DNA of 64,000 bases from Escherichia coli O157:H7 (GTDB taxonomy: Bacteria > Pseudomonadota > Gammaproteobacteria > Enterobacterales > Enterobacteriaceae), in NCBI RefSeq assembly GCF_013167455.1, contig NZ_CP038328.1. The stretch is one strand, 5' to 3'. Numbering within the stretch: position 1 is the stretch's first letter; each line of letters opens with the position of its first letter. The notes beneath the pieces were generated by a model that was not told the origin of the DNA, made no database searches, and saw only the letters and a program-made list of their open reading frames with translations. Below, piece after piece: positions 1,355 to 7,911 of the stretch. Position numbers and translations under genes: made by a program.

Positions 1355-2335
1355 ATGGCACAACGAGTACAGCTCACTGCAACGGTGTCCGAAAACCAAC
1401 TCGGTCAACGCTTAGATCAGGCTTTGGCCGAAATGTTCCCGGATTATTCACGTTCGCGAATAAAAGAATGGATCCTCGACCAGCGCGTGCTGGTTAACGG
1501 CAAACTTTGTGATAAGCCGAAAGAAAAAGTATTGGGTGGCGAGCAGGTTGCCATCAACGCTGAGATTGAAGAAGAAGCGCGTTTTGAACCGCAGGATATC
1601 CCGCTGGATATCGTCTATGAAGATGAAGATATCATCGTCATTAATAAACCGCGCGATCTGGTGGTACATCCTGGCGCGGGTAACCCGGATGGCACGGTAC
1701 TGAATGCGTTACTTCATTACTATCCGCCCATTGCTGATGTACCGCGTGCAGGCATCGTCCATCGTCTGGATAAAGACACCACTGGCCTGATGGTTGTGGC
1801 AAAAACCGTTCCGGCTCAGACGCGTTTAGTCGAATCTTTGCAAAGGCGTGAAATTACTCGTGAGTATGAAGCGGTGGCAATTGGTCATATGACCGCTGGC
1901 GGTACAGTAGATGAACCAATCAGCCGCCACCCGACCAAACGTACTCACATGGCGGTGCATCCGATGGGCAAACCGGCGGTGACTCACTATCGCATCATGG
2001 AACACTTCCGTGTGCACACGCGTCTGCGGTTGCGTCTGGAAACTGGACGTACGCACCAGATCCGCGTGCATATGGCCCATATCACTCATCCGCTGGTGGG
2101 CGATCCGGTTTATGGTGGCCGTCCGCGCCCGCCAAAAGGTGCTTCGGAAGCGTTTATCTCCACGCTGCGTAAATTTGACCGCCAGGCGCTTCATGCAACC
2201 ATGCTGCGTCTTTATCACCCGATCTCCGGTATCGAAATGGAATGGCATGCGCCTATTCCACAAGATATGGTGGAGCTGATTGAGGTGATGCGCGCCGATT
2301 TCGAAGAGCATAAAGATGAAGTGGACTGGTTATGA
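1355..2335 (+). CDS. rluD: 23S rRNA pseudouridine synthase RluD
   Basis: 326-aa ORF with S4 domain and RluA-family catalytic motif (HRLDKDTTGL). Confidence 0.95.
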   Translation: MAQRVQLTATVSENQLGQRLDQALAEMFPDYSRSRIKEWILDQRVLVNGKLCDKPKEKVLGGEQVAINAEIEEEARFEPQDIPLDIVYEDEDIIVINKPRDLVVHPGAGNPDGTVLNALLHYYPPIADVPRAGIVHRLDKDTTGLMVVAKTVPAQTRLVESLQRREITREYEAVAIGHMTAGGTVDEPISRHPTKRTHMAVHPMGKPAVTHYRIMEHFRVHTRLRLRLETGRTHQIRVHMAHITHPLVGDPVYGGRPRPPKGASEAFISTLRKFDRQALHATMLRLYHPISGIEMEWHAPIPQDMVELIEVMRADFEEHKDEVDWL

Positions 2336-3063
2336 GTAAGCTGATTGTCCCGCAGTGGCCGCTGCCAAAAGGTGTTGCGGCCTGTAGCTCTACTCGTATC
2401 GGCGGCGTGAGCTTGCCCCCGTATGACTCGCTCAACCTCGGTGCCCATTGTGGCGATAACCCGGATCACGTTGAGGAGAATCGCAAGCGACTTTTTGCTG
2501 CGGGCAATTTGCCTTCTAAACCGGTCTGGCTTGAGCAGGTACACGGCAAAGATGTGCTTAATCTTACTGGCGAACCTTATGCCTCAAAACGAGCAGATGC
2601 CTCTTATAGCAATACGCCCGGCAGGGTTTGCGCAGTGATGACTGCCGACTGCCTCCCTGTGCTGTTTTGCAATCGAGCGGGAACGGAAGTCGCCGCCGCT
2701 CATGCTGGCTGGCGTGGACTGTGCGCAGGCGTGCTGGAAGAGACAGTTTCCTGTTTTGCTGATAATCCAGAAAATATTCTCGCCTGGTTAGGGCCGGCAA
2801 TTGGCCCACGCGCGTTTGAAGTGGGGGCGGAGGTTCGCGAGGCGTTTATGGCAGTAGACGCCGAAGCGAGTACAGCTTTCATTCAGCATGGTGATAAGTA
2901 TCTGGCGGACATTTATCAGCTTGCCCGGCAGCGTCTGGCGAACGTGGGTGTTGAGCAAATTTTCGGCGGCGACCGTTGTACATATACGGAAAATGAGACT
3001 TTCTTCTCTTATCGTCGCGACAAGACCACCGGTCGTATGGCAAGTTTCATTTGGCTGATATAA
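2332..3063 (+). CDS. yfiH: YfiH/PgeF family laccase-domain protein (purine nucleoside phosphorylase / peptidoglycan editing factor)
   Basis: 243-aa ORF; start overlaps the rluD stop in an ATGA junction. Confidence 0.9.
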   Translation: MSKLIVPQWPLPKGVAACSSTRIGGVSLPPYDSLNLGAHCGDNPDHVEENRKRLFAAGNLPSKPVWLEQVHGKDVLNLTGEPYASKRADASYSNTPGRVCAVMTADCLPVLFCNRAGTEVAAAHAGWRGLCAGVLEETVSCFADNPENILAWLGPAIGPRAFEVGAEVREAFMAVDAEASTAFIQHGDKYLADIYQLARQRLANVGVEQIFGGDRCTYTENETFFSYRRDKTTGRMASFIWLI

Positions 3064-3124
3064 CCTAAAGAATCAAGACGATCCGGTACGCGTGATTTTC
3101 TTTTCACATTAATCTGGTCAATAA

Positions 3125-3155
3125 CCTTGAATAATTGAGGGATGACCTCATTTAA
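3125..3155 (+). promoter_or_regulatory. Candidate sigma32 heat-shock promoter for clpB
   Basis: ccttgaa (3125..3131), 14-nt spacer, cctcattta (3146..3154); resembles the CTTGAAA / CCCCATnT sigma32 consensus. Not validated. Confidence 0.45.
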
Positions 3156-3192
3156 TCTCCAGTAGCAACTTTGATCCGTTATGGGAGGAGTT

Positions 3193-5766
3193 ATGCGTCT
3201 GGATCGTCTTACTAATAAATTCCAGCTTGCTCTTGCCGATGCCCAATCACTTGCACTTGGGCACGACAACCAATTTATCGAACCACTTCATTTAATGAGC
3301 GCCCTGCTGAATCAGGAAGGGGGTTCGGTTAGTCCTTTATTAACATCCGCTGGCATAAATGCTGGCCAGTTGCGCACAGATATCAATCAGGCATTAAATC
3401 GTTTACCGCAGGTTGAAGGTACTGGTGGTGATGTCCAGCCATCACAGGATCTGGTGCGCGTTCTTAATCTTTGCGACAAGCTGGCGCAAAAACGTGGTGA
3501 TAACTTTATCTCGTCAGAACTGTTCGTTCTGGCGGCACTTGAGTCTCGCGGCACGCTGGCCGACATCCTGAAAGCAGCAGGGGCGACCACCGCCAACATT
3601 ACTCAAGCGATTGAACAAATGCGTGGAGGTGAAAGCGTGAACGATCAAGGTGCTGAAGACCAACGTCAGGCTTTGAAAAAATATACCATCGACCTTACCG
3701 AACGAGCCGAACAGGGCAAACTCGATCCGGTGATTGGTCGTGATGAAGAAATTCGCCGTACCATTCAGGTGCTGCAACGTCGTACTAAAAATAACCCGGT
3801 ACTGATTGGTGAACCCGGCGTCGGTAAAACTGCCATCGTTGAAGGTCTGGCGCAGCGTATTATCAACGGCGAAGTGCCGGAAGGGTTGAAAGGCCGCCGG
3901 GTACTGGCGCTGGATATGGGCGCGCTGGTGGCTGGGGCGAAATATCGCGGTGAGTTTGAAGAACGTTTAAAAGGCGTGCTTAACGATCTTGCCAAACAGG
4001 AAGGCAACGTCATCCTGTTTATCGACGAATTACATACCATGGTCGGCGCGGGTAAAGCCGATGGCGCAATGGACGCCGGAAACATGCTGAAACCGGCGCT
4101 GGCGCGTGGTGAATTGCACTGCGTAGGTGCCACGACGCTTGACGAATATCGCCAGTACATCGAAAAAGATGCTGCGCTGGAACGTCGTTTCCAGAAAGTG
4201 TTTGTTGCCGAGCCTTCTGTTGAAGATACCATTGCGATTCTGCGTGGCCTGAAAGAACGTTACGAATTGCACCACCATGTGCAAATTACTGACCCGGCAA
4301 TTGTTGCAGCGGCGACGTTGTCTCATCGCTACATTGCTGACCGTCAGCTGCCGGATAAAGCCATCGACCTGATCGATGAAGCAGCATCCAGCATTCGTAT
4401 GCAGATTGACTCAAAACCAGAAGAACTCGACCGACTCGATCGCCGTATCATCCAGCTCAAACTGGAACAACAGGCGTTAATGAAAGAGTCTGATGAAGCC
4501 AGTAAAAAACGTCTGGATATGCTCAACGAAGAACTGAGCGACAAAGAACGTCAGTACTCCGAGTTAGAAGAAGAGTGGAAAGCAGAGAAGGCATCGCTTT
4601 CTGGTACGCAGACCATTAAAGCGGAACTGGAACAGGCGAAAATCGCTATTGAACAGGCTCGCCGTGTGGGTGACTTGGCGCGGATGTCTGAACTGCAATA
4701 CGGCAAAATCCCGGAACTGGAAAAGCAACTGGAAGCCGCAACGCAGCTCGAAGGCAAAACTATGCGTCTGTTGCGTAATAAAGTGACCGACGCCGAAATT
4801 GCTGAAGTGCTGGCGCGTTGGACGGGGATTCCGGTTTCTCGCATGATGGAAAGCGAGCGCGAAAAACTGCTGCGTATGGAGCAAGAACTGCACCATCGCG
4901 TAATTGGTCAGAACGAAGCGGTTGATGCGGTATCTAACGCTATTCGTCGTAGCCGTGCGGGGCTGGCGGATCCAAATCGCCCGATTGGTTCATTCCTGTT
5001 CCTCGGCCCAACTGGTGTGGGGAAAACAGAGCTTTGTAAGGCGCTGGCGAACTTTATGTTTGATAGCGACGAGGCGATGGTCCGTATCGATATGTCCGAG
5101 TTTATGGAGAAACACTCGGTGTCTCGTCTGGTTGGTGCGCCTCCGGGATATGTCGGTTATGAAGAAGGTGGCTACCTGACCGAAGCGGTGCGTCGTCGTC
5201 CGTATTCCGTCATCCTGCTGGATGAAGTGGAAAAAGCGCATCCGGATGTCTTCAACATTCTGTTGCAGGTACTGGATGATGGGCGTCTGACTGACGGGCA
5301 AGGGAGAACGGTCGACTTCCGTAATACGGTCGTCATTATGACCTCTAACCTCGGTTCCGATCTGATTCAGGAACGCTTCGGTGAACTGGATTATGCGCAC
5401 ATGAAAGAGCTGGTGCTCGGTGTGGTAAGCCATAACTTCCGTCCGGAGTTCATTAACCGTATCGATGAAGTGGTGGTCTTCCATCCGCTGGGCGAACAGC
5501 ACATTGCCTCGATTGCGCAGATTCAGTTGAAACGTCTGTACAAACGTCTGGAAGAACGTGGTTATGAAATCCACATTTCTGACGAGGCGCTGAAACTGCT
5601 GAGCGAGAACGGTTACGATCCAGTCTATGGTGCACGTCCTTTGAAACGTGCTATCCAGCAGCAGATCGAAAACCCGTTGGCACAGCAAATACTGTCTGGT
5701 GAATTGGTTCCGGGTAAAGTTATTCGCCTGGAAGTTAATGAAGACCGGATTGTCGCCGTCCAGTAA
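3193..5766 (+). CDS. clpB: Chaperone ClpB (Hsp100 disaggregase), 857 aa
   Basis: ATG at 3193 after a ggagg RBS; N-terminus [18 protein letters not shown]; two AAA+ modules with Walker A motifs GEPGVGKT and GPTGVGKT. Confidence 0.95.
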
Positions 5767-5771
5767 TGATA

Positions 5772-5798
5772 AAACGAGCCCTTCGGGGCTCGTTTTTG
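5772..5798 (+). terminator. Rho-independent terminator downstream of clpB
   Basis: aacgagccc-ttcg-gggctcgtt hairpin followed by a T-run. Confidence 0.7.
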
Positions 5799-5859
5799 TC
5801 TATAAGTTAGACGGAAAAGACTATATTTAAGATGTTTTGCCTGAAAAATGAGCGAACGA

Positions 5860-5915
5860 TAAAGTTTTTATATTTTTCGCTTGTCAGGCCGGAATAACTC
5901 CCTATAATGCGCCAC
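5860..5915 (+). promoter_or_regulatory. rRNA operon promoter P1 with AT-rich UP element
   Basis: -35 ttgtca (5881..5886), 16-nt spacer, -10 tataat (5903..5908), GC-rich discriminator gcgccacc; AT-rich stretch immediately upstream. Confidence 0.75.
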
Positions 5916-5994
5916 CACTGACACGGAACAACGGCAAACACGCCGCCGGGTCAGCGGGGTTCTCCTGAGAATTCCGGCAGAGAAAGCAAAAATA

Positions 5995-6035
5995 AATGCT
6001 TGACTCTGTAGCGGGAAAGCGTATCATGCACACCC
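5995..6035 (+). promoter_or_regulatory. rRNA operon promoter P2
   Basis: -35 ttgact (6000..6005), 16-nt spacer, -10 tatcat (6022..6027), then GC-rich cacaccccgcgccgctg. Confidence 0.7.
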
Positions 6036-6063
6036 CGCGCCGCTGAGAAAAAGCGAAGCGGCA

Positions 6064-6076
6064 CTGCTCTTTAACA
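6064..6076 (+). promoter_or_regulatory. boxA antitermination element in the rRNA leader
   Basis: tgctctttaacaa matches the boxA consensus; a second copy (tgctctttaaaaa) lies in the 16S-23S spacer near 7984. Confidence 0.6.
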
Positions 6077-6208
6077 ATTTATCAGACAATCTGTGTGGGC
6101 ACTCGAAGATACGGATTCTTAACGTCGCAAGACGAAAAATGAATACCAAGTCTCAAGAGTGAACACGTAATTCATTACGAAGTTTAATTCTTTGAGCATC
6201 AAACTTTT

Positions 6209-7750
<1,542 letters not shown>

Positions 7751-7835
7751 CCTTAAAGAACTGTACTTTGCAGTGCTCACACAGATTGTCTGATAGAAAG
7801 TGAAAAGCAAGGCGTCTTGCGAAGCAGACTGACAC

Positions 7836-7911
7836 GTCCCCTTCGTCTAGAGGCCCAGGACACCGCCCTTTCACGGCGGTAACAGGGGTTCGAATCCCCT
7901 AGGGGACGCCA
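7836..7911 (+). tRNA. gltW: tRNA-Glu in the 16S-23S spacer
   Basis: 76-nt GTCCCCTTCGTCTAGAGGCCCAGGACACCGCCCTTTCACGGCGGTAACAGGGGTTCGAATCCCCTAGGGGACGCCA; TTCACGG anticodon loop context; encoded CCA end. Confidence 0.95.

Follow-up and report, generated by a model that had tools for sequence, protein, structure and literature searches.

The window analysed here, a stretch of 64,000 nucleotides, belongs to the E. coli chromosome, as judged by sequence match to complete genomes. Its plus strand carries the heat-shock chaperone gene clpB at 3193..5766, comprising 857 codons and a stop; the ATG is located at 3193, where the RefSeq CDS start maps as well, and 5766 is the last base of the stop codon. 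Gene identity is based on the translation, on annotation in E. coli genomes and on the Pfam domains of the product, namely Clp_N, AAA, AAA_lid_9, AAA_2 and ClpB_D2-small. The encoded protein matches ClpB chains in PDB with E = 3e-122, and it has the N domain, two AAA modules and middle domain of a class I Hsp100 disaggregase. In a representative E. coli record the gene order is bamD, rluD, yfiH, clpB and 16S rRNA gene. Genome annotation of clpB carries the long product only.

The primary start occupies 3183..3195 on the plus strand. It consists of a Shine-Dalgarno sequence, GGGAGGAG (3183..3190), and the ATG at 3193..3195, and is assigned from the sequence, the RefSeq start and duplex energy. 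Another in-frame ATG is found at 3181, four codons upstream of the annotated one and within the primary Shine-Dalgarno region. Because a mechanical call begins at this upstream ATG, the listing of open reading frames gives 861 amino acids for clpB.

The feature under study is a second start inside the gene. Codon 149 of clpB is GTG (3637..3639, plus strand); it corresponds to nucleotide 445 of the gene, is in frame with the ATG at 3193 and is assigned as the internal initiation codon from its frame and from the literature. Both its position and its codon number had been proposed in an earlier sequence-only reading of this DNA, and they are confirmed. The GTG is preceded by GGAGG (3625..3629) and separated from it by a spacer of 7 bases (tgaaagc, 3630..3636); the G of GTG therefore lies 8 nt past the last Shine-Dalgarno base. 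Counted in this way, the distance of 8 nt given in the sequence-only reading is true. That reading was also right in recognizing ggagg, but the pairing extends further. The internal Shine-Dalgarno sequence GGAGGTGA (3625..3632, plus strand) is formed by eight contiguous bases and is the exact reverse complement of TCACCTCC (7740..7747) in the 16S tail. The whole 3' tail of 16S rRNA, TCACCTCCTTA, is located at 7740..7750 on the plus strand, as identified from its sequence and from the 16S annotation downstream of clpB, and its anti-Shine-Dalgarno bases pair with 3625..3632. A minor slip concerns the interval of 3630..3640 assigned earlier to the site, which takes in the spacer and the GTG and leaves the Shine-Dalgarno core outside.

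The GTG begins four bases downstream of the 8-mer. The latter is built from the codons of Gly145 (GGA), Gly146 (GGT) and Glu147 (GAa), and GGA is the rarest glycine codon in clpB, used for only 3 of 63 glycines. For an elongating ribosome GTG 149 means valine; when it serves as a start, it means formylmethionine.

Translation from the two starts yields products of distinct size. The long form, ClpB95, consists of 857 amino acids with a calculated mass of 95.58 kDa. The short-isoform coding sequence (ClpB80 or ClpB-deltaN; 3637..5766, plus strand), assigned from computed mass and domain content, specifies 709 amino acids and 79.87 kDa. Both calculated masses agree with the names ClpB95 and ClpB80. 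Codons 1-148 (3193..3636, plus strand) encode the N-terminal substrate-binding domain, which is present in the long isoform only, as judged by Pfam and by the match to PDB 1khy. Clp_N matches in two stretches, the best of which covers residues 17-68, and the AAA match starts at residue 203; GTG149 falls in the gap that separates the Clp_N matches from the first AAA domain. In the crystal structure of the E. coli N domain (1khy), the chain comprises 148 residues and exactly matches residues 1-148. A start at codon 149 therefore drops the N domain and nothing else.

Strength of Shine-Dalgarno sequences was expressed as duplex energy against the 16S 3' tail of the window, and all in-frame ATG, GTG and TTG codons of clpB were scored. 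With -15.2 kcal/mol, GTG149 ranks first among the 54 NTG codons that are in frame in the gene; the primary start at ATG 3193 is weaker (-10.2 kcal/mol). When both strands of the whole window are considered, the GTG149 site is among the top 4 of 5,921 NTG sites. The 8-mer itself is found once on the plus strand of the window, and on the minus strand it has a match at 7747.

How far such a site may be expected by chance was estimated in two ways. All synonymous codings of the peptide MRGGES were enumerated and weighted by codon usage of clpB itself. The peptide yields a Shine-Dalgarno-like string with any choice of codons. The mean energy of the codings is -10.5 kcal/mol, and the probability of reaching -15.2 kcal/mol is P = 0.056. 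Further, 10 of 77 clpB homologues contain an equally strong in-frame combination of Shine-Dalgarno sequence and NTG at some other codon, so strong sites of this kind can arise by chance. These sites, with energies of -15 to -19 kcal/mol, are found in homologue loci L044, L072 and L075 (column 539), L045 (579/580), L037 and L056 (630), L064 (415), L065 (543), L035 (81) and L061 (498). Some of them recur in different taxa at one alignment column. Gly/Glu-rich peptides probably give rise to them as a by-product. Taken by itself, sequence evidence for the internal start is thus suggestive, not conclusive. In view of the chance sites in homologues and of the synonymous probability, position of the site and published experiments are the decisive evidence.

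Possible transcriptional signals upstream of and within the beginning of clpB were searched for by consensus scans. An element of sigma-32 type, CTTGAA-14 nt-CCTCATTT, is located at 3126..3153 on the plus strand. It deviates by one mismatch from the consensus CTTGAA-N12-16-CCCCATNT, and is probably the mapped sigma-32 promoter of clpB. No other sigma-32-like match with at most 2 mismatches was detected in 3064-3640, and so none lies inside the gene in this interval. No sigma-70-like promoter was detected in 3064..3700 by a consensus scan, which weak or atypical sites may escape.

We also considered the possibility that the internal start is gated by RNA structure, for instance as an RNA thermometer. 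The minimum free energy fold pairs the internal Shine-Dalgarno sequence (3625..3632) with upstream CCACCGCC (3588..3595). The 120-nt context of the internal start folds no better than shuffled sequences (z = -0.67), and the predicted unpaired probability of the stretch from the Shine-Dalgarno sequence to GTG is flat, 0.28-0.33 between 25 and 50 C. Because of these two results the pairing with CCACCGCC is unsupported, and a structure-gated or temperature-dependent start was rejected.

Conservation of the site was examined at several phylogenetic depths. A stretch of 701 bases surrounding the internal start shows 100% identity to E. coli complete genomes among the matches listed. This stretch was matched in 5425 of 5426 complete E. 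coli genomes, and every match is chromosomal and falls within annotated clpB. The 30-mer spanning Met143 to Gln152 (3619..3648) is identical in 5416 of these 5425 genomes, and the remaining nine have a mismatch somewhere in it. E. albertii, Citrobacter and Enterobacter have exactly the same Shine-Dalgarno sequence and GTG. When clpB genes of E. coli, Citrobacter and Enterobacter are compared codon by codon, codons 143-149 form a run of 7 identical codons that ends at the GTG. It is one of 6 runs of at least 7 codons in the gene, where about 2 are expected by rough arithmetic, and the longest of all, 13 codons, is located at the primary start. The 7-codon run is consistent with synonymous constraint and is not significant on its own.

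A broader survey covered 80 sampled loci, among which 74 gamma- and betaproteobacterial clpB genes have valine at alignment column 149. Were the GTG start codon broadly conserved, GTG should be enriched at this column. No such enrichment was found across the 74 genes: GTG is used in 35, and 34.6 are expected from the genes' own valine codon usage (z = 0.09). Broad conservation of the start codon was therefore rejected. Outside Enterobacteriaceae, Val149 is conserved as an amino acid and is encoded by GTG only at the rate of general codon usage; the codon is GTT in Photorhabdus and GTC in Pseudomonas, for example. Few of the 35 genes with GTG possess a strong Shine-Dalgarno sequence.

In this survey, Shine-Dalgarno pairing is stronger in genes that have GTG (Mann-Whitney p = 0.008, with one representative of Enterobacteriaceae and with kinship otherwise ignored). 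All six lineages in which the Shine-Dalgarno sequence exceeds synonymous chance (P < 0.1) have GTG, and this level is not reached by any of the 42 genes whose valine codon is not a start codon. A one-sided Fisher test on these counts, calculated by hand and ignoring phylogeny, gives approximately 0.006. In five homologue loci (L034, L040, L066, L075 and L076), the best candidate start in the linker is not at column 149 but at column 143, aligned with E. coli Met143, with ATG or GTG and energies of -10 to -14 kcal/mol. These few beta- and gammaproteobacterial lineages may have shifted the internal start to column 143.

Published experiments address the internal start. Ribosome profiling with retapamulin (Ribo-RET), which traps initiating ribosomes, was applied by Meydan et al. 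to E. coli K and B strains, and an initiation peak is present at the known internal site of clpB. The sequence-only reading had named a missing signal in initiation profiling as the result that would speak against it; the published E. coli data contain the signal. In Salmonella, chromosomally tagged clpB gives two bands (Fijalkowski et al. 2024). Replacement of GTG-445 by CTT leaves the long form only, and both bands stay when Met143 is mutated, a codon that gene-calling tools had called as a start from Salmonella Ribo-RET data (Fijalkowski et al. 2024). Tripathi et al. place the alternative start of E. coli at GUG in position 149, and papers that cite Park et al. 1993 attribute to that work the identification of GTG 149 as the codon at which internal initiation occurs in E. 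coli clpB. A "secondary Shine-Dalgarno sequence" in clpB was described by the Zolkiewski laboratory, who also reported that hetero-complexes of both isoforms disaggregate proteins better than either isoform singly. In the form without the N domain, basal ATPase activity is de-repressed.

Codon number, secondary Shine-Dalgarno sequence, product sizes and literature are all in agreement with the earlier proposal that the site matches a known internal initiation site. That both isoforms are encoded here, as was also proposed, is borne out by the computed masses and supported by the published Salmonella mutagenesis. The finding is the ClpB95/ClpB80 internal start of E. coli, which is already known and not novel.

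Taken together, these data make it almost certain that translation begins at two in-frame sites on a single heat-shock-induced clpB mRNA, giving ClpB95 and ClpB80. Most 30S subunits would bind the 5' Shine-Dalgarno sequence and start at ATG 3193, producing full-length ClpB95. Other 30S subunits would pair the 3' tail of their 16S rRNA with the internal GGAGGTGA and start at GTG 3637, producing ClpB80, which would lack only residues 1-148 with the N-terminal substrate-binding domain. Both forms would then co-assemble into mixed hexamers, in which disaggregation would proceed better than with either isoform alone. In vivo initiation, loss of the short form upon GTG mutation and cooperation of the isoforms are taken from the literature; for this strain, we infer that a single mRNA serves both starts.

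Three other explanations of the site were weighed against dual initiation. The Shine-Dalgarno-like string and the GTG might be a mere by-product of the peptide R-G-G-E-S-V, at which no initiation takes place; the 80-kDa species would then originate from proteolysis of the flexible linker, and the only effect of the motif, if any, might be a pause of elongating ribosomes at the boundary between the domains. Several of the above results agree with such a by-product: the peptide alone already gives a mean of -10.5 kcal/mol, the E. coli energy is reached by synonymous codings with P = 0.056, GTG is not enriched at Val149 across proteobacteria, and sites of like strength occur by chance in homologues. 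However, the Ribo-RET peak in E. coli reflects initiating, not elongating, ribosomes, the short product starts at the predicted codon according to the literature, and proteolysis leaves unexplained why a change of the single codon GTG to CTT abolishes the Salmonella short form. This explanation is already refuted by published mutagenesis and initiation profiling, and we give it practically no credence. Just as little weight can be given to Met143 (ATG, 3619..3621, plus strand) as the internal start in place of GTG149. It is in frame and just 6 codons upstream, ATG is superior to GTG as a start codon, and automated tools did select it from Salmonella Ribo-RET data. On the other hand, Met143 has no Shine-Dalgarno sequence upstream (-2.4 kcal/mol), the strong one being situated 3' of it, and in Salmonella the mutant in this ATG keeps both isoforms, whereas that in GTG149 loses the short one. 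Met143 was ruled out on these grounds.

It is likewise very improbable, if slightly less so, that the short form initiates at GTG149 on a shorter mRNA of its own, transcribed from a promoter within clpB, in which case the isoform ratio would be set by transcription and not by two starts competing on one mRNA. The reported shift of the ratio under stress would fit such a promoter (Chow and Baneyx 2005, as referred to by Fijalkowski et al. 2024), and in Leptospira transcript ends upstream of the internal start of clpB have been reported. Against it stand the scans described above, which revealed neither a sigma-70-like site in 3064-3700, apart from weak or atypical promoters that could escape them, nor a sigma-32-like element with at most 2 mismatches inside the gene upstream of GTG149. 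Moreover, Fijalkowski et al. 2024 place the alternative starts in known transcripts and credit translational control.

The conserved linker R-G-G-[E/Q]-x-V may represent a latent start, because codons for Gly-Gly-Glu resemble a Shine-Dalgarno sequence and valine can be encoded by GTG. Judged from sequence comparison of 80 loci, uncorrected for phylogeny, this latent start may have been optimised by synonymous choices in some lineages only. We hold it possible, with a little less than even confidence, that two-isoform ClpB is a patchy trait, repeatedly gained or lost, and not an anciently conserved start. According to this patchy reading, the start may be switched on in Enterobacteriaceae (GGA-GGT-GAA...GTG) and in a few scattered gamma- and betaproteobacteria. 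The codon survey would then qualify the published statement of Tripathi et al. that the GTG is "highly conserved". A lineage-restricted start agrees with a remark in the literature that E. coli ClpB is special in that its truncated isoform is produced efficiently. It is also in agreement with the situation in Anaplasma, whose clpB has, according to the literature, no secondary Shine-Dalgarno sequence and a single product.

Among known systems, the E. coli pair ClpB95/ClpB80 represents this very locus: GTG 149, secondary Shine-Dalgarno sequence and product sizes are all the same, and no difference was found. This dual initiation was reportedly described by Squires et al. 1991, Park et al. 1993 and Nagy et al. 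2010. The ClpB pair of Salmonella Typhimurium is produced from the orthologous gene and shares the GTG-445 start, which has been validated there by chromosomal mutation. In this different species, however, the short form is about nine-fold weaker than the long one, and the ratio changes under SPI-2-inducing conditions. Similar gene organization, that is an in-frame internal start with its own Shine-Dalgarno sequence and an N-terminally shortened isoform, is known from E. coli infB (IF2 alpha/beta) and mrcB (PBP1b). Internal starts of infB, mrcB and clpB were recovered together by Ribo-RET (Meydan et al.), although the infB and mrcB proteins are unrelated to ClpB and both the removed segment and the functional consequence differ. 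In Mycobacterium tuberculosis, Synechococcus and Leptospira, a full-length ClpB and a form of about 80 kDa without the N domain have been reported. Start codon and Shine-Dalgarno sequence need not be homologous in these organisms; for Leptospira, ATG has been proposed.

As a discovery the site counts for little; it is a textbook case of two proteins from one gene, which the sequence-only reading recognised from raw sequence. The isoform ratio tunes the disaggregase, and aggregates are reactivated better by mixed hexamers of ClpB95 and ClpB80 than by either isoform singly. What is mildly new is only the survey of codons, which suggests that the internal start is lineage-restricted. Optimisation limited to certain lineages bears on the question of why short ClpB exists.

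Several features were noted in the neighbourhood of clpB. An rRNA operon starts directly after the gene (5767..7911); its 16S gene ends at 7750, and tRNA-Glu is located at 7836..7911. No intrinsic terminator was detected by a simple scan of 5700..6300, which includes the interval from the clpB stop (5766) to the first rrn promoter. Strong sigma-70 promoter-like sites are found at 5881..5908 (TTGTCA-16-TATAAT) and 6000..6027 (TTGACT-16-TATCAT). On the other side of clpB, the stop of rluD overlaps the start of yfiH by four bases (2332..2335; open reading frames 1355..2335 and 2332..3063, respectively), suggesting translational coupling of these two genes.
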